From a virus (Duplodnaviria > Heunggongvirae > Uroviricota > Caudoviricetes): a DNA stretch of 64,000 nt. The notes beneath the pieces are model-generated. The model did not search any database and was not told the origin of the DNA. It saw only the letters and a list, made by a program, of their open reading frames with translations. The DNA lies in IMG/VR virus record IMGVR_UViG_3300049044_000033, positions 1-64,000 of that record; one strand, given 5' to 3'. Below are positions 8,555-52,719 of the stretch, piece after piece (position 1 is the stretch's first letter; every line of letters begins with the position of its first letter). A program made the position numbers and the translations under genes.

Positions 8555-9613
8555 TTAAAATCTTTTCCCAGTTAGGGTAAATGAAACATTTTGAACAGTT
8601 GGATCTGTCCTTGTGACTTTGAACATTAGGATTTCACCTTTGCTTATAGTCAAAGAAGATGAGGTGAATACCTTGTTAAAGGTCACTAAGCCGGTATTGT
8701 TAACACTGATAGTTCCCACTACATTCCCTAGTCGATTCAATACTGAAATCTCAAATCTAATATTTGGATTAGAAGTCACAAATCCAACAGCCTGCATATC
8801 GGCAGGGAAATTAACATCTACACCTGCGGTCCAGATTAGAACTGAATTGAGTGGAGGGTTTAGTGGGAAGAAACATGATACAGTTTCTTTTTCAGCGTAG
8901 ACCGGAAGGCTAACTTGGATCTTACCAGGTTCGATCTCTTCGACAATAAGATCGGGGTGGAAGACAATTTCATCAACAGTTGAATCACCGATGGTAATTG
9001 ATCCACTACCTGGTTCACCCTTAGGTCCTTCAGGACCAGCATCACCTTTAGGACCGGTAGGTCCGGCCGGGCCAGTAATACCAGCCGGGCCAGTAGGTCC
9101 TGGTGGACCTTGAATACCTTGAATCCCTTGCGGGCCTTCTGGACCGACAGGACCTGCAGGACCAACGGGACCTTGTGGTCCAGTGAATCCTCGTGGACCC
9201 ATAGGACCGGGCTCGCCCATAGGTCCCATTGGACCTATTGGACCCTCGTCGCCAGTATAACCACGTGGTCCGGCCGGTCCCTGTGGACCCATTGGACCCA
9301 TTGGTCCGATAGGACCTTCATTACCCGAATAACCTCTTGGCCCAGTAGGACCTGGAGGACCCATTGGACCTTCTGGACCTATTGGTCCTTCATCGCCCGA
9401 GTAGCCGCGTGGTCCAACAGGACCGGATGGACCTTCTGGTCCTTGTGGTCCAACTAAACCTGCCCTACTGGCTTCAAACTTTGTTAGTTCGGCATCTTCT
9501 TGAGAGATGGTCTTGTGAGTGAAATCACCAGTGCCTGGTTCAATGTAGACACCATCAGTGCCGCCAATACCTTCAGAACGTCCGTCTTGATTTCCAATAT
9601 CGTTAGTAGACAC
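8555..9613 (-). CDS. Collagen-like fiber protein
   Basis: About 50 consecutive Gly-X-Y triplets and a C-terminal beta domain; TATAAATA upstream. Confidence 0.9.
9011..9460 (-). repeat. Gly-X-Y collagen coding repeat with four 72-bp higher-order units
   Basis: GPxGPRGY(S/T)G(D/N)EGPIGPxGPMGxx three times plus a degenerate fourth. Confidence 0.9.
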
Positions 9614-11482: not shown

Positions 11483-11520
11483 AACCCTCCAAATCAACTT
11501 GAATATTTATTGGAAGGGTT
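11483..11520 (-). promoter_or_regulatory. Late promoter AATAAATA inside an SD-sequestering hairpin
   Basis: AACCCTTCCAA...TTGGAGGGTT inverted repeat flanking TAAATA. Confidence 0.65.
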
Positions 11521-12541
11521 ACTCCGACTTAGCATCAAGCTGAATGTTAACTGGTTCACCGGGTGCAGGCATTGCCAAATCGGAACTATTGCTAGTGTAC
11601 CAATTAACAGTTGTGGAGGAGTTCACAACGTTGATCGTGAATGTGCCAAACAAGGTTAACTTAGTTCGGTCAGTGACCTTGACTGTGAAAGTGTAGACAG
11701 TATCTTGTGTTACTGGTGAGATTGTTCCCGAGATTACGCCTGTTGACTTGTTTAGACTCAAACCGCCTGGTAGGGCACCACTAGTGATCTCGTATTTCTG
11801 AACATTGTTTTCACTATCGAAGACCTGGAGTGGTAGACTAATAGTAGAGTTCTCAATGTAGGTACCGATGTTGCCTGTCTGCATTGCCCAAGTAGGTGCG
11901 TTGAAGGCTTCATTTGTAATAGCTGTCAGTGAGATGTTACGAAGACGACCTACAAACCTACGAGCCAATGAACCAGCTGGGCTACTAGAGTTGACATAGG
12001 CCCAATCGGCCCCAAAACTCAAACCGTTGGACGTATCATATGGGGGATCACATTCTAGGTCAAAAACCTTAATACCATTGACTAAACCCTGGCAACGGTA
12101 TTGTCCTGAGTCTTGATAGAACCTGATCTTAATCCTATACCAACGTTTGGTCATATAGTTAGGTATTAGGACTTGGCTAAACTGGTATTGAGTATTATCA
12201 CCTGAACTGTAGAACATCACTGAAGTGTCTTCTTGTTCAATCGTCCACTCGCCGAGAGCTCCGCCAAAGCTTTCGCCGTTTGTAGCAATTACCTTATTGC
12301 TTCCAGCTTCCAAATAAACATCAAGCTCAATAGTGTAGGGTGCCATGACTTGGAAGGCATCTTGATGAGCATAACGAATGGTCTTTGTGCCATCAAACAC
12401 CATATAGTCAGACACAGTAGAGGGGGCAATTGTGCTAGAATCAGCAGTTAGGGAATTAGCACTGTTGCTAGAATTGTTAACCATACGGAGTTGAGTGTTA
12501 GACGTATCTACCACATCGTATGGAACAAAATTAACAATCAT
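11519..12541 (-). CDS. LamG/ConA-like lectin domain + He_PIG Ig domain + Ig N-terminal stub
   Basis: FDGT...YTIELDVY...WYRI...FVGRLRNI; GALPGGLSLNKSTGVISGT; YTFTVKVTD. Confidence 0.8.
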   Translation of the reverse strand: MIVNFVPYDVVDTSNTQLRMVNNSSNSANSLTADSSTIAPSTVSDYMVFDGTKTIRYAHQDAFQVMAPYTIELDVYLEAGSNKVIATNGESFGGALGEWTIEQEDTSVMFYSSGDNTQYQFSQVLIPNYMTKRWYRIKIRFYQDSGQYRCQGLVNGIKVFDLECDPPYDTSNGLSFGADWAYVNSSSPAGSLARRFVGRLRNISLTAITNEAFNAPTWAMQTGNIGTYIENSTISLPLQVFDSENNVQKYEITSGALPGGLSLNKSTGVISGTISPVTQDTVYTFTVKVTDRTKLTLFGTFTINVVNSSTTVNWYTSNSSDLAMPAPGEPVNIQLDAKSE

Positions 12542-42667: not shown

Positions 42668-44665
42668 TTAAATATCGCCAGGTGGAAATTTGTAGTATTT
42701 ACTCTCCGACTTCAAAGCGCGGTCAAAAGTCGTTGGCGTAGTCGTTGGGGTGTCTGGGTTTTCTGGACCGTCAAAAATGATAATATCTAGGAAGCTCAAT
42801 TCTTCTGAGTCATCGTCCTTGGCATCACCGTCCATATCATTGTAGAATGTGGTTGCTGAGAAGCCATCGCTCAATAGTAGGTATCTATCTACCTCAATTG
42901 TGCTACCCTGGAGGTCTTCATTCATACCAGCAGTCTCGAGGGCTTTGACTATTGCGGGACCACTTCCTGATCTCACGTAGGCAAGTTCAATAGCAGCCTG
43001 GTAGCCAAGAACCGTTGAGGGCTTTCCAAGTTCTTGCTCACACATCATCCAAAGTGGTAAACCTTCTCGGCCTAATATACCAAGACCTGCTTGACCGGCT
43101 AGGCGGTTTGCGGTATTGATAAGATCCAGACGCAAGTTCTTTATGCTGTTTGGATAGTATTGATTTTGATCAGCAGGGAGGTTCCATTGATTAATGGCAG
43201 TAGGGTTCTGACCCGCAACATATCTTGGTAGGTGTTCTTCCCTCTGGATAGAATTAAAACCACCTGCACCTTCCATAGGATCCACAATAGTCATGTAGAT
43301 GACATCGTAGATGTGAGTTCCTTCTGGAGAGCGAGCCTTTGCGCTCTTGATCTGTCCTACCCTCAAGGTTGTAGGATGGTGGTAATCCTTGAGGTAATCC
43401 AGCAAACCTCCACTATAGTTGAGACCATTAGTGAGTAGGATTTTGTAATCACGCTTTCTACCAAAGTAAACATCAGAACGCCTAAAGAGATTATCCCATC
43501 CCAATATAGTGAGTTTGTCCTGAGTTCTCAGTTCTGCTTGGTTACCCCAAACCCAACGAGCCAGTTTCTCTCTGATTAGTGGAGAGACATTAATCTGAAG
43601 ACTGGTAGTAGATTCGGAAATAAAGATGTTCCTGATCGTGATACTAAAGGTGCGTTCGCCCGCAATAGTCGACTGGCGGATAGCACCAGTTTCATTGTGA
43701 ACGAATACCACCCTTGCTTCAACGGTGAATTCAAATGTCTTGTTAATGGTCACGTAGGGACAGCGACCAATAATCAATCCTGACATTGGGTCGAGCAATA
43801 AACCATCGGGTAGTGGTTTGCTCTTTGGTGTAATGGTATATTGAATGGTCTGACTCTCTAGGGAGTTCAAGCCACTGACCTCATATTGAGGAACTGCTTT
43901 AACTGCAAAGTGACTTGGGTAGGTCTCGTAAGTCGACCCTAGACTTCCCGCAGGCGTCTCCCAACGCACCGCGTCAGACAAACGGGCATCCAACACTATC
44001 TCAGTGCCAATGGTGAGGCGATAGATCTTCTCAGAAGTCCTTGGCGAACCTTCTTCGCGTGGGTTGCTCAAGAGATCATCAGGATCTCGAGCATAAACCC
44101 TGAAGTAATAGTCTCCAGGCTTATTGCCTGTAATATTGGGTGATCCCACGATCCTACCCCTGGAGTCAATTTCAAGTCCTCCGGGTAGACCTTGGAAAGT
44201 ATTAGCCGGACCCACAAAGCCAACTGCTTTATAGACCAGCTTGTCTCGGTCAGGGTTCACAATATCGAGTTGAACCGTAACACCCGAACCTCTGTTGAAC
44301 GTTCCTAGGTATTGAATGCCAGTTGGACTTTCCCAGTGCTGTTCTTCATCAATAGGATTGACAATTAGCTTGAATGACCTGTCATAAGTCCTGGTAGAGT
44401 TCTGGAATGTTACTCGGAAGACTACAGGATATTCAGTTTTATCCTTAGGTAGTTCCTCAATGGTTCCCATGATCTTATTTGAACCGCCATTAAAGAATAG
44501 ACCCAAGGGCAAAGTGCCACCGATCATTGTAATGGCTTCAAAATCACTGAATAGAGGATGAGAAGTATCAAGTTCCAAGTTGACATTCACAACGTCAGCA
44601 CGGCGCCATGGTTCTCCGTCATTCAACAGATCACCGCTTTGTGGTGCTGACCAAATTGTTGCCAT
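42668..44665 (-). CDS. Baseplate wedge-like protein with three complete He_PIG Ig domains
   Basis: LPxGL...GxIxGx P repeats, IYDVIY, IEVDRY, KYYKFP; start ATG 44665 after AGGAGG and AATAAATA. Confidence 0.7.
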   Translation of the reverse strand: MATIWSAPQSGDLLNDGEPWRRADVVNVNLELDTSHPLFSDFEAITMIGGTLPLGLFFNGGSNKIMGTIEELPKDKTEYPVVFRVTFQNSTRTYDRSFKLIVNPIDEEQHWESPTGIQYLGTFNRGSGVTVQLDIVNPDRDKLVYKAVGFVGPANTFQGLPGGLEIDSRGRIVGSPNITGNKPGDYYFRVYARDPDDLLSNPREEGSPRTSEKIYRLTIGTEIVLDARLSDAVRWETPAGSLGSTYETYPSHFAVKAVPQYEVSGLNSLESQTIQYTITPKSKPLPDGLLLDPMSGLIIGRCPYVTINKTFEFTVEARVVFVHNETGAIRQSTIAGERTFSITIRNIFISESTTSLQINVSPLIREKLARWVWGNQAELRTQDKLTILGWDNLFRRSDVYFGRKRDYKILLTNGLNYSGGLLDYLKDYHHPTTLRVGQIKSAKARSPEGTHIYDVIYMTIVDPMEGAGGFNSIQREEHLPRYVAGQNPTAINQWNLPADQNQYYPNSIKNLRLDLINTANRLAGQAGLGILGREGLPLWMMCEQELGKPSTVLGYQAAIELAYVRSGSGPAIVKALETAGMNEDLQGSTIEVDRYLLLSDGFSATTFYNDMDGDAKDDDSEELSFLDIIIFDGPENPDTPTTTPTTFDRALKSESKYYKFPPGDI

Positions 44666-44670
44666 GGAAA

Positions 44671-44767
44671 TCCTCCTACTCCCTATATTTATTGGGTAGA
44701 GGAATGTCATTCTATAGCAGGAAATCTCCACTCTTTGTGTTTTTCTAATACTTCTAGGAGGTAAATA
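44671..44767. promoter_or_regulatory. Divergent late promoters
   Basis: AATAAATA on minus (44686-44693) within an imperfect SD hairpin; GTAAATA on plus (44761-44767). Confidence 0.6.
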
Positions 44768-44788
44768 GAAACGAATTAGGAGGACGAC

Positions 44789-46015
44789 ATGGGTATTAGA
44801 ATCAAAGGTCAATACAAGCCCGTGGGCATGATCAAGTTTAGACGCTCGCTCATCGCTCCAGTGTTTGCCGTCTTACCAAGCATTACCTACAATACTCTCT
44901 TAGTGGGTGATACTTTCACAGCAAATGACGGAACTGCTTCTCCTGCTAATGCGGTAGTAAGTCGTCGCTGGCTCTTGGATGGAGAACAGATCGGAACCGG
45001 CTCCTTTGTAGTCGTAGAAGTTCCTGGTTCGCTCGTCCTAGAGGTAACCTATACTAATGGCGCAGGATCGGTCACTGAAACAACTTCGGCAATTGATATC
45101 GACTATGCGGAACTAGTATTCAGCACTCTCCCAAGCATCAGTTATCCAGATCTATTTGTTGGTAGCACTTTTACGGCAGTGGACGGTGAATGGACTCCAC
45201 TAAATGCTGATATGGAACGCCGCTGGCTACTAGGTGGTGTTGAGATTGGTACTGATGAAACAGTTACACCAGAAGCAGGTGGTATTCTAACACTTGAAGT
45301 GACTATTAGCAATCCAGGTGGTTCGCTGACTAAGACTGCTTCAATCACTATTGCGGCACACCAGCCGGCCTTTACCGTTGATCCAAGCATCTCACCAAAT
45401 GGTGGTCCAATGGGAACTACCTTTACTGGTAATGATGGTACCTACCAGTATGGTACAGTGACTAGCAGGTCTTGGTTGTTTGATGGTCAAGTCATTAATG
45501 GCGCAACCACTGACACTTACATCTCGGATGGCATTGGTCAGGTTTCCTATCGCGTTACTATCACAGGCGCAGGTGGAACTTTAACTAAGACTTCAACTGC
45601 GGTTTCCTCTACTTCAGTTCCTGAAAAGCTCAACCCTCCAGTATGGGCAACACAGACTGGTAACTTGGGAACCTACGCAGAAGGCACTGCGATCAGCATT
45701 CCACTGTTGGTAACTGATCCTGAGAATAACGTTCAGAAGTATGAAATTACCAGTGGAGCACTGCCAAATGGTACCACGATTAACCTAACTACTGGTTTGA
45801 TCTCTGGTACCCTCGCAGAAGTTGTCACCGATACCGTTTACACCTTCACCGTTAAGGTAACTGACAGAACCAACCTGACACTGACTGGAACGTTCTCGAT
45901 TAACGTCGCTAACGTGAAGACCACTGTTGTTTGGGAAACAGATAATAGTTCTGACCTAGCACAGCCTGCTCCAGGTGAAACTATTACTGTGGCCTTGGGA
46001 GCAACGTCTAGCTAA
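44789..46015 (+). CDS. Multi-Ig virion protein ending in a complete He_PIG domain plus an Ig N-terminal stub
   Basis: Three P.IS...VG.TFT..DG...RRWLL.G repeats; C-terminal ~125 aa strongly similar to that of 11519-12541. Confidence 0.8.
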   Translation: MGIRIKGQYKPVGMIKFRRSLIAPVFAVLPSITYNTLLVGDTFTANDGTASPANAVVSRRWLLDGEQIGTGSFVVVEVPGSLVLEVTYTNGAGSVTETTSAIDIDYAELVFSTLPSISYPDLFVGSTFTAVDGEWTPLNADMERRWLLGGVEIGTDETVTPEAGGILTLEVTISNPGGSLTKTASITIAAHQPAFTVDPSISPNGGPMGTTFTGNDGTYQYGTVTSRSWLFDGQVINGATTDTYISDGIGQVSYRVTITGAGGTLTKTSTAVSSTSVPEKLNPPVWATQTGNLGTYAEGTAISIPLLVTDPENNVQKYEITSGALPNGTTINLTTGLISGTLAEVVTDTVYTFTVKVTDRTNLTLTGTFSINVANVKTTVVWETDNSSDLAQPAPGETITVALGATSS

Positions 46016-47163
46016 TGGCTAAGGTTCTATCTATCCGATATACTGTGGTCGACGGCGCGCTTCCTAATGGACTCGCGCTAAACCCTGAAACTGGGGCAAT
46101 CACAGGCAGTCCTGACTATAGTGCTTTGAACCAGGGACCAGTATGGCAAACCGCTTCTGGTAGTCTAGGTACCTATAACGAGAATGATGCTTTTACACCA
46201 GTAACTTTCTCTACCACGACAACACATAGCCCGGTTGTTTTTAGTCTTTCCACCTCTAACGATAAGTTACCTTGGGGGTTGGTTCTTAATCCAACCACTG
46301 GAACTATTTCGGGAACTGTTGCACCACTAAAGCAACGAGTTAAAGAAGCCGGTGTGACCTTCGATGGTCCTACTTGGAACACTCAGTTTGGTAAGCTGGC
46401 TAACTTTGATGAAGGTCAAGTCTCAGCTATCAACTTGTCTGCCACTCCCCTTGGTAGCAGGACGATTAAGGCTTACTCAGTTGTCGAAGGCGACCTTCCA
46501 TTTGGTCTAGTGTTGAACCTAAAGACTGGGGTGATTTCAGGAACTGTTGGACGATTGAAGAACCCTGGTCCATTCGTTGACGTTCCTAAACTACCAGTTC
46601 CTGTGTGGAACCAAGCAGCTGGTAATATTGCGACTATTCACGAGACTGAATCTCTCACTATGTCAATCGGAGCAACACCTGACTCTAGTCGCTCAATGTC
46701 CAAGTATATTATTCGTGAAGGCAACTTACCACTTGGTTTAAAACTCAACATCAATACTGGTGCAATTACTGGAACGGCGGCTTTCCTTCCTTATAAGGAA
46801 GCTGCCTACTATGATTCCACGATGGATCCAGTATTCAGTGACACAGTGACAATTGGCGGATCACCCTCAACCGTAGTGGATCAGGGTAGTTTGGGTTCTT
46901 ATTCAAAAGGTGCTTCAGTCTCGATAGCTCTGAGTGCTACTCCTGCTTCTGGTAGAACTATCAAGAACTATTCGATAACTAATGGAGCATTGCCCTTGGG
47001 CTTGAAGCTCAACGCAACCACTGGGGTAATCTCGGGAACTATTCTCAATAGTGCTTTTGTGGCACTAAAGACTTACAACTTTACAGTAGCGGTTGTCGAT
47101 AAGGATGGAAGTTTCTTCCTACAAAATAATAAGTCAAGAACCTACAAGATTGTAGTTCAGTAA
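46015..47163 (+). CDS. He_PIG repeat scaffold protein A
   Basis: Five LPxGLxLNxxTGxI(S/T)G cores. Confidence 0.85.
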   Translation: MAKVLSIRYTVVDGALPNGLALNPETGAITGSPDYSALNQGPVWQTASGSLGTYNENDAFTPVTFSTTTTHSPVVFSLSTSNDKLPWGLVLNPTTGTISGTVAPLKQRVKEAGVTFDGPTWNTQFGKLANFDEGQVSAINLSATPLGSRTIKAYSVVEGDLPFGLVLNLKTGVISGTVGRLKNPGPFVDVPKLPVPVWNQAAGNIATIHETESLTMSIGATPDSSRSMSKYIIREGNLPLGLKLNINTGAITGTAAFLPYKEAAYYDSTMDPVFSDTVTIGGSPSTVVDQGSLGSYSKGASVSIALSATPASGRTIKNYSITNGALPLGLKLNATTGVISGTILNSAFVALKTYNFTVAVVDKDGSFFLQNNKSRTYKIVVQ

Positions 47164-47175
47164 AGGAATTAAGTC

Positions 47176-48504
47176 ATGGCAGTATTCAACTTTACCGTTC
47201 GAGCCACTGATAGTGAAGGCTCCTATAGTGATCGCCAGTTCAATATCACCGTTCGTAATTCTCGAGTAGAACGCTTTATGGTTGTTGACTCGGCTGATGC
47301 CTGGACTTCACCTGATGGAACCACTTGGACACAAAGAGTCGGCCAGGGCGGTATTACTTGCGCATATGGTAATGGCTTCTGGCTAATTCTTAAGAGCACC
47401 GCTAATATGACGTGCTTGAAGTCGACTGATGGTGTAAACTTTGCCCAAATAACTAACACCAGTATGACTTTTACTGATGTTGATACTAGCACTACCCTAT
47501 CTGGACCTACAGGTCTTGACGCAAGGGTCAAGTTAAAGTTCTGGAATGGAACATTTTATTATTTGACCTGCCTGGGAACTAATGGAACCTATGCTCTGTA
47601 TTCAACAGTTGATGGTATTAACTGGAAGAGGAAGGTTCTCTTCCAGGAGGTAAATAGTAACAACGGTGTTGCCTTCATTCCATCAACTTCTCAGAATAGA
47701 ATAGAATTATACGACGATAATGGAACATTATTTGTTCCATTCGCTGCAGGTTGTGTTACTACGGTTACTATGAATCCTGGATCTGGATTTGTAAATTGTA
47801 TGGGATGGTCCACGACTGATGGTGTGACCTTTACACCAATACAGAATGCCTCTCAAACATCAAAGCTAACTTCTAAAGGTGCAGGTATAATTACTCGAAT
47901 CAACGGGGTGTATTTGGCCTTCAATACAACCCACAATAATACAACAATGGTCGGATCTGTTTCTATAGGACTTTCTAGTAACGCAAATCCCTCCTATTCT
48001 ACATTATGGGCAAATTACCTATATTCGACTGATGGTTTGAATTGGACAATCGGTACTAATACAGCTTTAGCTACTAGCAATTCTAACCAATCTCAAGGCT
48101 TAGATTGTCCAATAAGTGTAAACGGTCAAATCTACATGTTGCCAGCGGCAGTCAGTCCAAACAGCGAAGGTACTGATACAGTAACACAGATATCCTATAT
48201 TCTCTCCACTACAGATCTTTTAACGTGGACTTCGACTGCTATGAAAAATGATATCGCTTGGAGCACCACTGGTTTGGGTTCTCCCCGATTTAGGAAAGTG
48301 ATATTTAAGAACGGTGTCCTGCTTTATGTTCCATCCTCAACATCTGGAGTTGATACTAACGCGGGCACTAACAGAGGGGTCAACGGCTTTAGAGTTTCTG
48401 TCGATGGAGGAACAACTTGGACGGTAGTAAACACTTTAGGTAATTACCCTGCTGCTAGTAGCAGTGGCAATGCTAAGATCTATAACGACGTAGCAGCAAT
48501 GTAA
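47176..48504 (+). CDS. Asp-box (BNR) beta-propeller putative adhesin A
   Basis: Repeated S(T/P)DGxxW; N-terminal FNFTVRATD Ig hairpin. Confidence 0.8.
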   Translation: MAVFNFTVRATDSEGSYSDRQFNITVRNSRVERFMVVDSADAWTSPDGTTWTQRVGQGGITCAYGNGFWLILKSTANMTCLKSTDGVNFAQITNTSMTFTDVDTSTTLSGPTGLDARVKLKFWNGTFYYLTCLGTNGTYALYSTVDGINWKRKVLFQEVNSNNGVAFIPSTSQNRIELYDDNGTLFVPFAAGCVTTVTMNPGSGFVNCMGWSTTDGVTFTPIQNASQTSKLTSKGAGIITRINGVYLAFNTTHNNTTMVGSVSIGLSSNANPSYSTLWANYLYSTDGLNWTIGTNTALATSNSNQSQGLDCPISVNGQIYMLPAAVSPNSEGTDTVTQISYILSTTDLLTWTSTAMKNDIAWSTTGLGSPRFRKVIFKNGVLLYVPSSTSGVDTNAGTNRGVNGFRVSVDGGTTWTVVNTLGNYPAASSSGNAKIYNDVAAM

Positions 48505-48530
48505 TCTTTATTCAAGGAGGCGTCTAACTA

Positions 48531-49676
48531 ATGGCTAAGATTTTATCAATTCGCTACACACTAGTGGATGGATCGCTTCCAAATGGTATGAAGCTGAATC
48601 CTGATACTGGTGTGATCTCAGGCAGTCCTGGTTTTGACGCATTGGGACAGGGTCCAGCTTGGCAGACTACTGCGGGAAGTCTTGGAACCTACAATGAGAC
48701 TGATGTAATCACCCCAGTAACATTTTCGGCAACCACTACTCACAGTCCTGTAGTCTTCAGTCTCGCAACATCAAATGATAAGTTGCCTTGGGGCTTAGTC
48801 CTCAACCCAACCACTGGAGTTCTTTCTGGAACCATTGCAGCATTGAAGTTGAGGGTTAAGGAAGAAGGGGTGACCTTCGACGGTCCTACTTGGAATACCT
48901 CTTTCGGTAAGTTGGCAGGATTTGATGAAGATGCCGTGGCTAGTATAAACTTGTCTGCAACACCTCTAGGTAGCCGAACCATTGCTCGCTATACTGTGGT
49001 CGAGGGTGCTCTTCCTTGGGGTTTAAAGCTCAACCCGGCTACTGGTGTTATCACTGGCAGTGTAGCTCGCCTTAAGAACCCAGGTGCTTATGTTGACGTT
49101 CCAAAGCTTCCTGTGCCAGTCTGGTCCACAGCTTCAGCTCTCGGAACTCTAAACGAATATGAAACCGCTAATTTCACTCTAGCAGCAACACCTGATACTG
49201 GTCGATCCATGGCTAAGTATATCATTCGAGAAGGCGCTCTTCCTTGGGGTCTAAAGCTCAATAGCGTAACTGGTGCTATTACGGGAACGGCAGCTGATAT
49301 CTTGAAAAGGAATGAACCTGTTTATTATGATTCTGCCAATAACCCAGTATTCAGTGATACTGTAGTGATAAATGGCAGCAATACAACGGTAACTAATAAT
49401 GGTAGTATTGGTTCCTATACTAAGGGAACTGCGGTCTCGGCTACATTCTCTGCTACCCCAGTATCTGGTCGAACTGTAAAGAACTATTGGATGACTGGTG
49501 AATTGCCTTGGGGCTTGAAGTTCAACCCGACTACTGGTGTAGTTTCAGGAACTATCGTCAATAACGCAAGGGTAGTGAGTAAGACTTACACCTTTAATAT
49601 TTTCGTCACCGACAAGGACGCACCAAGTTATTTGGTAAATAGTTCAAGTCGAACCTTCACAATAACTGTTCAGTAA
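48531..49676 (+). CDS. He_PIG repeat scaffold protein B
   Basis: Colinear paralog of 46015-47163. Confidence 0.85.
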   Translation: MAKILSIRYTLVDGSLPNGMKLNPDTGVISGSPGFDALGQGPAWQTTAGSLGTYNETDVITPVTFSATTTHSPVVFSLATSNDKLPWGLVLNPTTGVLSGTIAALKLRVKEEGVTFDGPTWNTSFGKLAGFDEDAVASINLSATPLGSRTIARYTVVEGALPWGLKLNPATGVITGSVARLKNPGAYVDVPKLPVPVWSTASALGTLNEYETANFTLAATPDTGRSMAKYIIREGALPWGLKLNSVTGAITGTAADILKRNEPVYYDSANNPVFSDTVVINGSNTTVTNNGSIGSYTKGTAVSATFSATPVSGRTVKNYWMTGELPWGLKFNPTTGVVSGTIVNNARVVSKTYTFNIFVTDKDAPSYLVNSSSRTFTITVQ

Positions 49677-49688
49677 GAGGTAAAAACA

Positions 49689-50909
49689 ATGGCAGTATTT
49701 AATTTTACAGTAAGGGCGACTGACAGCGAAGGTTCTTATGCCGACCGTCAGTTCAATATCACTGTTCGTAACTCGCGCGTCGAGCGTTTCATGGCAGTCA
49801 CCTCTACCGATGCGTGGACTTCACCCGATGGTACTACTTGGACACAAAGAAACGGCCAGAGTGGATTTACTTGTGCGTATGGTAATGGTTTCTGGCTAAT
49901 CCTTAAATCTCAAGCGACTGGAACATCGGCTCTAAAGTCAACTGATGGTATTAACTATTCGGCCATTTTACCGGCAAACCAGACGTTTGTTGACGAAACT
50001 GGCACTGCAATCACCGGTCTTACCAATGGTCCAATCTTTACTGCGTTGTCACTTGCCCGTCTGCGTTTTTGGAATGGACGATTCTGGATTGTCACAACAA
50101 ATGGTAGTAATCAGTCTGGTACTTCTGCCACTATGTTTTATGACTTATGGTCCACTGCTGATGGTATCACTTGGAGAAGAAATAGACTTCTCACACTCTC
50201 ATCTGGTGCTTTAAATACTCCTCCTGTTCCATATTTGGTAACAATGTATGAAGACAATGGAACATTCTTTATTCCATTCTCCTGTAGTTATAACACTCCT
50301 GTTCCTGCAGCTGGAAATAACTGGTGCTATGGTTGGTCAACTACGGATGGTACAACCTTTACTCAGATCCGAGATACTACAGTAACGTCTTCAACTTCGT
50401 CGACCTTTTACGGAGCATCTATTCTTAACCGAATTAACGGTGTCTATTTCGTTATGCCTACCACTACTGGAGGCTCAACTAACTGGACACAGACAACATT
50501 TAGGTATTCAACTGATGGTCTGAACTGGACTACATCGACATTCAATGCTAATGCTGGAACCAACGCTCCATTGAATTTTGTTTATGCAAATGGCCAAGTT
50601 TATTCATTCACACAAAAACAATCATCAGGTGTTGGTTCTACTGCAAATTACTTTACGTCGTCGGACGGCGTGACCTGGAATATGACTGAATTCAAATCAT
50701 TTAATACCACTGCTGGTGTTATCCACCACTCGGTTTATAAGAACGGTGTGTTCTTAATGGCAGGGTCTGTTGCTACTGGCACAGACACTAACAACTCTAC
50801 GTTGTCTGTTCCTAATAATGGTTTGCGTGTCTCCGTTGATGGTTCGACTTGGACAAGCGTTAATGTTGGTTCTGGAACTATCAACTATGCAGACGTTGCT
50901 GCAATGTAA
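49689..50909 (+). CDS. Asp-box (BNR) beta-propeller putative adhesin B
   Basis: First ~70 aa nearly identical to 47176-48504, then divergent; both end DVAAM. Confidence 0.8.
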   Translation: MAVFNFTVRATDSEGSYADRQFNITVRNSRVERFMAVTSTDAWTSPDGTTWTQRNGQSGFTCAYGNGFWLILKSQATGTSALKSTDGINYSAILPANQTFVDETGTAITGLTNGPIFTALSLARLRFWNGRFWIVTTNGSNQSGTSATMFYDLWSTADGITWRRNRLLTLSSGALNTPPVPYLVTMYEDNGTFFIPFSCSYNTPVPAAGNNWCYGWSTTDGTTFTQIRDTTVTSSTSSTFYGASILNRINGVYFVMPTTTGGSTNWTQTTFRYSTDGLNWTTSTFNANAGTNAPLNFVYANGQVYSFTQKQSSGVGSTANYFTSSDGVTWNMTEFKSFNTTAGVIHHSVYKNGVFLMAGSVATGTDTNNSTLSVPNNGLRVSVDGSTWTSVNVGSGTINYADVAAM

Positions 50910-51016: not shown

Positions 51017-51655
51017 TTACGCTGCTGGCTCCCTACGGGCTTCTTCCAATTCGCTAATGAGAACAATCCGCTCAGTAGACGAGAAGTCTGAGTTAGAGAG
51101 CTTAAACATCATCGCATCATTGGCGTTAAGGAAGAAGAACGATGCGTTCCAATCAGTGTTGGCCCGGTAATCACCTTCCCTACCCTCAAAATATTCCTGA
51201 CACCATAGATTCATCTTGTTGATGTGGGAGGAATCATACTGACCTCTTTGGGTCTTGAGCTTGGCTCGAACCGCAAAGCGGTATTTGTCATAGAAGAGTT
51301 TCTTCCTCGTGATGACCTTTTCCTTCTCCAACATCTCAGAATGTTGGCTATCGAGCGGCTTCTCATACTCAACGAGGTATTGCTCGCCTATCGTCGACTT
51401 TATGTGATCAAAGATCTCGGGATCAGAAAAGAATAAGGTATAATAGGTACGCTCGGCCGCCCAACGGTTAACCACCCACGCCCATTTGTCGCTCTCTGTG
51501 CCTCTGTAATCTGCCTTGTTGAACTTCTGAGCCAATACCCATTTGATCACATCAGGAGTGGGCTTCTTATCATCGTCCTTGGTAGATTGACAGTCTACTA
51601 CCAAGCGGTGATTGAACTTCTTGTAATAGATCTTACGGGTGACCAGTTCTTTCAT
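51017..51655 (-). CDS. FKLxWGG-related protein, two domains
   Basis: Repeated (R)K.(Y/F)Y.K(F/Y)..R; IKWV / NLWC; FFFLNANDAMMFKLS. Confidence 0.72.
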   Translation of the reverse strand: MKELVTRKIYYKKFNHRLVVDCQSTKDDDKKPTPDVIKWVLAQKFNKADYRGTESDKWAWVVNRWAAERTYYTLFFSDPEIFDHIKSTIGEQYLVEYEKPLDSQHSEMLEKEKVITRKKLFYDKYRFAVRAKLKTQRGQYDSSHINKMNLWCQEYFEGREGDYRANTDWNASFFFLNANDAMMFKLSNSDFSSTERIVLISELEEARREPAA

Positions 51656-51663
51656 TAACCCTC

Positions 51664-51930
51664 CTAGCAACTCAGCTTGATTGTCATTGCGTCTCGATCT
51701 GTTTTTGCGACGACAATCACCTGCAGCATGGAGGTGGTTACTTGATTTCCCTTTGTCTCGTAGGTTGGATACCAGACTACCTTGCCCTCAAACGACATGG
51801 AATCAAACCAAGCTTTGAAGGAGTCTAGGTCTTCGCCTTCCTCAAAATAGATGTAGAAGGTATGACCCGGCTGATCCTTAAGCCTTGGGTGATGATGACT
51901 CACAGGAGAGAAATGGAGGAAAATCTTCAT
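51664..51930 (-). CDS. FKLxWGG-related small protein
   Basis: KAWF; AKTDRDAMTIKLSC. Confidence 0.7.
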   Translation of the reverse strand: MKIFLHFSPVSHHHPRLKDQPGHTFYIYFEEGEDLDSFKAWFDSMSFEGKVVWYPTYETKGNQVTTSMLQVIVVAKTDRDAMTIKLSC

Positions 51931-51965
51931 GCGCCCACCATAATGGCAGGGCAGTCATGTTGTCA

Positions 51966-52205
51966 TTATTCGTGCGACAACCTACAGCGCATCGCGTCTT
52001 TTTTGTTGAGGAAATGATAAGAATTGGTCAGAGTGGTTTCATTCAAGAGGGCAGCGGCACCTACATTATAGGTTAGGTGTTCTAAATTATCTTTACACCA
52101 AACTACCACATTGGTAAGTTCTACCACACTCCCGTGATAGACGAGCACAAATGGCAAGGGATAGCTAGGATTGCCCGTAAAGTCGTGGAAATACTTGAGC
52201 TTCAC
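51966..52205 (-). CDS. FKLxWGG-related small protein
   Basis: VVWC; YHFLNKKDAMRCRLS. Confidence 0.72.
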   Translation of the reverse strand: MKLKYFHDFTGNPSYPLPFVLVYHGSVVELTNVVVWCKDNLEHLTYNVGAAALLNETTLTNSYHFLNKKDAMRCRLSHE

Positions 52206-52471
52206 AACATCACCAACTTGAAGCGCATCGCATCATTCTTGGACTTGAATCCAAACTTCTGAACCATCAAAGCGGTTCCATTCTTAATGGCTTTAATTTT
52301 GCTGCTGAATGTACCGTCGCCTGGGATTATCTCAGGATATTCAGCTTTGTTATAGATTACAAACATGGTTTTATTCTGATCTACCCACCGACAGCACTGG
52401 CCAAGTTCAGTCTCAGTGCCTTCGACGTAGAACCAAGTCAAGTCGGTTTGGATGGTGTTTGTGATCTTCAT
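52202..52471 (-). CDS. FKLxWGG-related small protein
   Basis: CRWV; FGFKSKNDAMRFKLV. Confidence 0.75.
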   Translation of the reverse strand: MKITNTIQTDLTWFYVEGTETELGQCCRWVDQNKTMFVIYNKAEYPEIIPGDGTFSSKIKAIKNGTALMVQKFGFKSKNDAMRFKLVML

Positions 52472-52719
52472 TCCACACTCAACTTAAACATGAGGGCATC
52501 CTGTTTATTGGAGAAGGTCAAGACGCAATAGTGAAGATCTCCGGTATTCTCTCCCAAGTCCCAACAGATGGGTCCCGGAGTCATACCTGTGGGAAAGCGA
52601 TCTCGCGCTTGGGAGACGATCATTCGAATAACAGAAGGAACACCTGATACCCACACGGAAGTCTGACCCTTATCAGGCCAGTCCTCCTTTGCTTTGAGGT
52701 GGTAATCTGCTAGTCGCAA
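52468..52719 (-). CDS. FKLxWGG-related small protein
   Basis: LTFSNKQDALMFKLS. Confidence 0.72.
   Translation of the reverse strand: MRLADYHLKAKEDWPDKGQTSVWVSGVPSVIRMIVSQARDRFPTGMTPGPICWDLGENTGDLHYCVLTFSNKQDALMFKLSVE

Follow-up and report, generated by a model that had tools for sequence, protein, structure and literature searches.

Within a 64,000-nucleotide stretch of DNA (hereafter the window), which forms the start of the complete 462,455-bp virus record IMGVR_UViG_3300049044_000033, we found one immunoglobulin (Ig)-like domain of the He_PIG family divided among the products of three different genes, and the three chains probably rebuild this domain as the joint of a modular virion appendage. 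The size of the complete record and its direct terminal repeats mark it as the genome of a jumbo phage. Positions 44789-50909 are filled by five co-directional genes in the order A-S1-P1-S2-P2, which encode a putative stalk or adaptor protein (A, or A1), two scaffolds (S1 and S2) and two propeller proteins (P1 and P2). Strands A-B of the seven-strand He_PIG domain lie at the C-terminus of A, strands C-C'-E (the CE piece) at the N-terminus of each scaffold, and an F-G hairpin at the N-terminus of each propeller protein.

Three gene products each hold one part of a He_PIG domain

In searches with the Pfam He_PIG model (PF05345), A, S1 and S2 all scored above the gathering cut-off of 24 bits, with 43.4 bits for A (E-value 4.7e-11), 119.2 bits for S1 (1.1e-34) and 120.6 bits for S2 (3.9e-35). 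The pieces were then placed on a clade-specific hidden Markov model (HMM) of 90 positions, which was built from 53 complete He_PIG domains. On this model the three pieces are complementary, do not overlap and are jointly complete, since they occupy positions 3-30 (A-B), 31-58 (C-C'-E) and 66-89 (F-G). When the last 30 residues of A, residues 2-33 of S and residues 2-30 of P were joined in silico, the product matched positions 3-89 in one piece with a score of 57 bits. The pieces of S2 follow the same pattern as those of S1, and residues 3-26 of P2, like those of P1, align with positions 66-89. Among A, S and P, a complete seven-strand He_PIG domain within a single chain was found only as the last domain of S and as one domain of A. 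The linkers that follow the truncated S repeats gave no alignment to the F-G part of the model. The initial annotation of the window had claimed that the open reading frame at 44789 ends in the first He_PIG segment only and that the propeller frames at 47176 and 49689 begin with the missing last segment; the HMM alignment bears out both claims. Its description of the scaffolds, which were said to start with the middle segment and to continue with three incomplete repeats and one full domain, proved exact. The split is far beyond chance, given that these boundaries are shared by 46 of 56 scaffold relatives, as judged by HMM, and by 172 of 188 relatives of the propeller proteins.

The stop codon of A and the start codon of S1 have one base in common (TAATG), and the remaining junctions in the cluster span 12-27 nucleotides (nt) and contain ribosome-binding sites. 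None of the S and P proteins can be extended N-terminally, since each of their starts is preceded by a stop at a distance of 1-4 codons (one codon in the case of S1). The coordinates of all pieces are collected in Table 1.

Table 1. Genes of the cluster, the He_PIG pieces that they encode and a remote A-B donor. Positions are those of the window; model positions refer to the 90-position HMM.
Feature	Position	Strand	Description
A (A1), stalk/adaptor	44789..46015	+	408 amino acids (aa)
Complete He_PIG domain of A1	45650..45907	+	residues 288-373; model 1-89, 90 bits
A1 C-terminal A-B piece, first third of split domain	45920..46012	+	last 31 aa; model ~3-30 in concatenation
S1, scaffold	46015..47163	+	382 aa; CE piece, three F-G-less repeats (ABCE), one complete domain
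S1 N-terminal C-C'-E piece, middle third	46015..46119	+	residues 1-35; residues 8-35 = model 31-58
S1 repeat 1, without strands F-G	46138..46329	+	residues 46-105 = model 1-59
S1 repeat 2, without strands F-G	46369..46554	+	residues 124-180 = model 2-58
S1 repeat 3, without strands F-G	46600..46788	+	residues 202-258 = model 3-59
S1 terminal complete He_PIG domain	46879..47160	+	residues 289-382 = model 2-90, 114 bits
P1, propeller protein	47176..48504	+	442 aa; N-terminal F-G hairpin, then beta-propeller with Asp-box-like motifs
P1 F-G hairpin, last third	47176..47259	+	residues 1-28; residues 3-26 = model 66-89
S2, scaffold	48531..49676	+	381 aa; architecture as S1
P2, propeller protein	49689..50909	+	406 aa; hairpin residues 1-28 at 49689-49772; divergent propeller
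A2, second A-B donor	11519..12541	-	340 aa; long N-terminal region, complete He_PIG domain, A-B piece at 11522-11614

The split recurs in distant phages

The gene order A-S-P, the boundaries of the pieces and the overlap of the A stop with the S start are also present in Agrobacterium phage Atu_ph07. The same layout was found at two loci of Sinorhizobium phage Phosso, in four IMG/VR jumbo contigs and in one ENA contig, with amino-acid identities that fall to about 35% across the A-S-P loci, and the A stop overlaps the S start at nearly all of them. As far as sequence comparison can tell, the split is conserved in more than 100 distant phage lineages, and it is neither an artefact nor a local accident.

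In the propeller family, an exhaustive profile-free search with P1 yielded 163 clusters at 50% identity. Nearly all of the alignments start from the first residue of query and match alike, and among these matches no form was found in which the hairpin is preceded by a He_PIG array. The hairpin is the N-terminus of the 172 relatives mentioned above, and the other 16 can be put down to wrongly called starts, to fragments or to long propeller proteins that are unrelated. Over 51 propeller proteins, mean identity is 85% in the hairpin as opposed to 33% in the body. The propellers of P1 and P2 are 53% identical; of the first 36 codons of the two genes, 14 are identical, 20 differ synonymously and 2 carry replacements, a pattern that marks strong purifying selection on the hairpin. 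Recent gene conversion was considered as a source of the near-identical P1 and P2 hairpins and was rejected on account of the 20 synonymous differences. A degenerate DNA pattern for the F strand also matched ordinary complete He_PIG domains within large proteins. The stored gene call for P1 (P0121, 346 aa) begins at residue 97, so that the hairpin is omitted (47176-47463).

An AlphaFold2 (AF2) model of P1, computed from 51 sequences, reached a predicted template modelling score (pTM) of 0.84 and contains a confident propeller that follows the hairpin and a short linker. The hairpin itself is modelled as strands at residues 2-11 and 17-26, with a predicted local distance difference test score (pLDDT) of 76-85. 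Foldseek searches with this model retrieved sortilin Vps10p, kelch and YCF48 propellers with E-values down to 1e-8, and the best viral match of P1 is gp241 of Atu_ph07. Profile matches of P to sialidase and to glycoside hydrolase family 43 (GH43) are weak; the Pfam model BNR_2 (PF13088) gave P2 28.5 bits, below its gathering cut-off of 31.4 bits, and no match on P1. The propeller fold of P is seen by AF2 and Foldseek and not by its BNR_2 score. The propeller is a probable receptor- or glycan-binding head.

Scaffolds lack F-G strands in every module but the last

The 46 scaffold relatives assigned by HMM have the architecture CE-(ABCE)n-FULL, where n ranges from 2 to 7 and is most commonly 3, and most of the remaining 10 show it by eye. 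Among more distant He_PIG proteins, 117 complete domains were counted versus 1 without F-G, which ties the loss of F-G to this scaffold family; from these counts, the loss appears essentially confined to the family that is accompanied by free F-G hairpins. Three of the scaffold relatives (P0011, P0034 and P0054) continue beyond the complete He_PIG domain with an additional Laminin_G_3 or F5/8 type C domain at the C-terminus, which suggests that the scaffold itself can carry a second binding head.

The modules of S are joined by linkers of two kinds. The linker after the composite N-terminal domain has about 9-10 residues, and those after the internal repeats have 16-20 residues and are proline-rich; ordinary He_PIG tandems have no linker between domains. 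Linker 2 is as conserved as the domains (mean identity 0.46), and its motif R-L-K..G..[VI].[VE]-P-K was found again in Phosso. The long internal linkers could either cover sockets in cis or space bulky propellers. The AF2 model of the S1 monomer, from a 42-sequence alignment, has a mean pLDDT of 85.6 and a pTM of 0.41 and belongs to the cadherin-like fold class. All seven strands of the terminal domain are present with pLDDT above 94, and the truncated repeats have only three strands by DSSP and no paired C strand. The linkers are poorly defined, with pLDDT below 50 at residues 109-116 and of about 59 at residues 181-190. A complex prediction for S1 residues 40-265 (the three internal repeats) together with P1 residues 1-36, run without controls, gave scores of 0.19 and 0.27 relative to a mark of 0.32 and speaks neither for nor against binding.

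A-B pieces sit on different carriers

A1 consists of an N-terminal peptide, three Ig-like spacer repeats of about 95 residues, a complete He_PIG domain and the C-terminal A-B piece. Across 11 A homologues the pattern of this piece, T-V-x-W-x-T...P-G...L-x-A-x-S, is invariant or nearly so. The N-terminus of A (44789-44870; homologues L003-L006 and L047) is a conserved basic peptide, MGIR..G.Y....(R/K)F.R, which looks like a beta-hairpin and persists in the second Phosso triplet as well; this peptide may anchor A to the virion or to a further socket. The three spacer repeats (44870-45640) are probably Ig-like and are matched by no Pfam model. Homologues of A have 0, 1 or 2 of these repeats, and A proteins measure 151, 236, 324 or 408 residues, as if the length of the stalk were modular.

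A second A-B donor, A2, is encoded in a separate fibre operon of the window. It was absent from the initial annotation, and it could supply an A piece for S2, so that the apparent shortage of A for S2 is removed. The N-terminal region of A2 resembles lectin or LamG domains by eye only, with no family search behind this label. The same operon encodes proteins of 1181 and 219 residues, a fibre-like protein of 330 residues, and a protein of 352 residues (8555-9613, minus strand) in which a long collagen-like Gly-X-Y tract precedes a globular C-terminal domain. In a related 465-kb genome (L040), which also has the order A-S-P-S-P, the A2 orthologue is syntenic. At the ENA locus (L048:1-3489) a protein of more than 2300 residues, with He_PIG, cadherin and Laminin_G_3 matches, ends in a complete domain plus an A-B piece and lies directly upstream of a small A-S-P triplet. 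The occurrence of A-B pieces on such different carriers suggests that the S-P cassette may be a common plug-in tip.

The whole genome holds two A-B donors, two CE acceptors (S1 and S2) and two hairpins (P1 and P2); no other hairpin donor turned up when the genome was searched for more. The related 465-kb genome has the same 2:2:2 inventory with the same remote A2, the inventory of Atu_ph07 is 1:1:1, and genomes with two local triplets hold two A's. Some loci have two P genes per S. In P0307, at a contig edge, C-E, F-G and the propeller are in one chain, and in P0053 and P0056 A-B and C-E are in one chain.

Homologues of A, S and P are present in the virion of Atu_ph07

The homologues of A, S and P in Atu_ph07, namely gp239 (15.8 kDa), gp240 (36.3 kDa) and gp241 (43.7 kDa), are all listed in the virion table obtained by electrospray ionisation tandem mass spectrometry (PMC6102473, Table S5). 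They peak in gel slices 11, 5 and 6, respectively, which indicates that they are separate chains; the peptide counts of this proteome are non-quantitative. The particles of Atu_ph07 bear tail fibres and capsid-associated 'hairy whiskers'. Deposited gp240 begins at an internal codon, so that the CE piece is missing from its annotation. In the present genome, the genes neighbouring the cluster are tail-fibre-like.

A proposed three-chain joint and its alternatives

In the reading that we favour, an A-type protein, acting as stalk or adaptor, would give strands A-B from its C-terminus, S would give strands C-C'-E from its N-terminus, and P would give the F-G hairpin from its N-terminus. Together these would form one sandwich in which sheet A-B-E packs with sheet C'-C-F-G. 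The strand directions suggest a non-covalent, Y-shaped joint, with the stalk entering at one end and the Ig array of S and the propeller of P leaving at the other. The stop/start overlap of A and S would favour co-synthesis of the two chains. Varied A-B carriers, such as the small adaptor, A2 and the giant protein of more than 2300 residues, would bring one and the same S-P cassette to different fibres, and the fast-evolving propeller would set specificity. The AF2 monomer models of S1 and P1 fit this picture. The architecture is well supported as a conserved genetic arrangement; as a physical assembly it is hypothetical, and we infer the assembly, geometry and stoichiometry of A, S and P from their sequences.

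Several observations weigh against the three-chain joint. Parity of the three genes is not universal, as Phosso has 2 A, 2 S and 3 P genes and the ENA locus has two A-B donors beside a single S-P pair. The virion evidence comes from distant homologues in Atu_ph07 and not from the present phage. Furthermore, the composite domain is equivalent to the internal repeats, the difference being that A-B is supplied in trans to the former and in cis to the latter. There is therefore no reason in the sequence why the composite domain alone should need the hairpin; either every F-G-less module is a socket, or the internal repeats are masked by their long linkers. The conserved linker 2 and its recurrence in Phosso hint at a structural role in cis. 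That the three internal F-G-less repeats also take the hairpin is a serious possibility, which we hold to be somewhat less likely than not.

In its full form this possibility would make every F-G-less repeat a socket for a P hairpin, giving a bottle-brush with up to four propellers per A·S, and up to about nine in relatives with longer scaffolds. The initial annotation had proposed such a multivalent appendage; of that interpretation, the division of one domain among three products stands, as the pieces fit, are conserved, and have virion homologues in Atu_ph07. Four filled sockets per scaffold, at a ratio of about 4:1, we regard as possible and rather doubtful. Symmetry speaks for them, because the strands absent from the internal repeats are precisely those that the composite domain lacks, and all non-terminal repeats are F-G-less across the family and almost nowhere else. 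The linkers contain no F-G-like sequence, have low confidence in the AF2 monomer and, at 16-20 residues, leave space for propellers. Some loci provide two P genes per S, and P1 and P2 differ so little in their hairpins that either could fill any socket. On the other hand, gene counts are mostly 1:1:1, and the conservation of linker 2 in distant phages fits a role in covering the repeats in cis. A tentative extension, similarly doubtful in our view, is a plug-and-socket system in which any fibre protein ending in A-B might capture S, and each F-G-less repeat might capture a propeller through the near-universal 28-residue hairpin, producing a branched, multivalent, hairy structure with swappable heads. 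If true, the hairpin and its socket would be a ready-made, non-covalent tag for joining proteins, and heads could be swapped by gene replacement.

Alternatively, the scaffold might complete its internal repeats itself, through the linkers or by swapping between S chains, so that the P hairpin and the A-B piece would serve the terminal joint or cap the array. We consider this unlikely, though by no means negligible. Phage fibres are commonly oligomers, which would suit swapping. The proline-rich linkers are conserved, the linker after the composite module is only about 9-10 residues long in comparison with the 16-20 after internal repeats, and the 1:1:1 parity would be expected. However, AF2 assigns the linkers no confident position, and a linker with five prolines among some 20 residues is unlikely to replace two strands in a regular way.

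It is very improbable that fission of an ancestral fused gene merely left the pieces behind, and that its products no longer reassemble and act independently. The partly fused P0307 exists, as do the A-B plus C-E variants P0053 and P0056, and such forms could be read as remnants of that ancestor. Yet if the 28 residues were a remnant without use, they would not be better conserved over 163 clusters than any other part of the protein, nor would a 20:2 ratio of synonymous to non-synonymous differences be expected of them; lone pieces of two or three strands cannot fold; and gene order and stop/start overlaps are conserved. Translational joining, by a -1 frameshift at A/S or by readthrough at S/P, would make the split only apparent, and although S is in frame -1 relative to A, with overlaps of 1 or 4 bases, and S and P share a frame within the window, we reject it as extremely improbable: overlap length and frame relation vary by locus (one overlap is 8 nt), two in-frame stops separate S1 from P1, elsewhere the S and P genes share 1 nt and are read in different frames, each of the two has a ribosome-binding site of its own and a conserved Met start, the Atu_ph07 homologues peak in separate gel slices, and a hairpin fused behind a complete domain would still be a surplus F-G.

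Comparison with known strand-sharing systems

The initial annotation had likened the arrangement to chaperone-usher pili. In Pap, Fim and Caf1, as proposed here, an incomplete Ig-like fold is completed by the terminal extension of another chain, and the resulting non-covalent fibres are very stable; as a mechanism, the analogy holds. The machinery does not carry over. In chaperone-usher pili one strand (G) is missing, the donor is N-terminal, and a head-to-tail polymer is formed with a periplasmic chaperone and an usher. Searches of the complete 462-kb genome gave no match to a PapD-like chaperone (PF00345) or an usher (PF00577), although the controls were matched. Instead of lacking a single G strand, the S modules lack F-G, the first also lacks A-B, and their donors are unrelated. 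The N-terminus of P would contribute two strands and the C-terminus of A another two, so that three chains would form one domain, and assembly would occur in the cytoplasm of the infected cell.

Strand donation between subunits also builds extracellular filaments in type V pili of Bacteroidota, in TasA fibres (PMC9674648) and in archaeal threads or bundling pili. These filaments are homopolymers with a single donated strand; none of them is known to split a domain over three proteins, and none is viral. Classical cadherins belong to the same fold class as He_PIG, but their EC1 domains swap the A strand symmetrically between complete domains, and the cadherin-like modules of SraP (PDB 4m03), which also share the fold class, are complete. 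We know of no natural domain that is shared by three different proteins. In SpyLigase and SnoopLigase, which derive from CnaB2 or RrgA, and in tripartite split green fluorescent protein, a sandwich or barrel cut into three pieces reassembles and so ties fusion partners together. Engineered tripartite split domains such as SpyLigase are the nearest analogues in logic, but they are laboratory constructs with an isopeptide bond or a chromophore, whereas the present arrangement would be natural, widespread and non-covalent.

Among phages, the CBA120 tailspikes, G7C gp63.1/gp66 and T4 gp9-gp12 are cases in which adaptors allow a single site on the virion to hold several receptor-binding proteins that can be exchanged for one another. 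Such branched receptor-binding complexes likewise combine fast-diverging heads with conserved docking ends, but they dock by complete folded domains and not by strand sharing. Among the papers searched for donor-strand mechanisms in phage fibres and for He_PIG in phages there was no relevant report. If true, the three-chain joint would explain how the whisker or fibre appendages of jumbo phages, which are poorly understood, are built and diversified, with a constant docking peptide and a freely evolving head. It would also call for a correction of annotations, as gene callers remove the diagnostic N-termini of P1 and of Atu_ph07 gp240, and it would provide a natural three-part assembly module for protein engineering. 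The proposal is directly testable since Atu_ph07 and Phosso are cultured phages whose hosts are non-clinical.

Genomic surroundings of the cluster

A megablast search of the locus against phage records found no match, and a PHROGs search with A, S and P gave nothing useful. Promoter and terminator scans returned sites no more numerous than those in shuffled controls. Upstream of A, the opposite strand encodes a He_PIG protein of 714 residues and a tail-fibre-like protein of 1025 residues. The 714-residue protein (42668-44812, minus strand) is transcribed in the direction away from A, probably starts at an internal ATG near 44665, and comprises three complete, divergent He_PIG domains and a C-terminal part of about 330 residues. 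Downstream of P2, at 51017-52719 on the minus strand, lies a series of small genes; a D-A-(M/L)-x-F-K-L motif at the C-terminus is common to their products.

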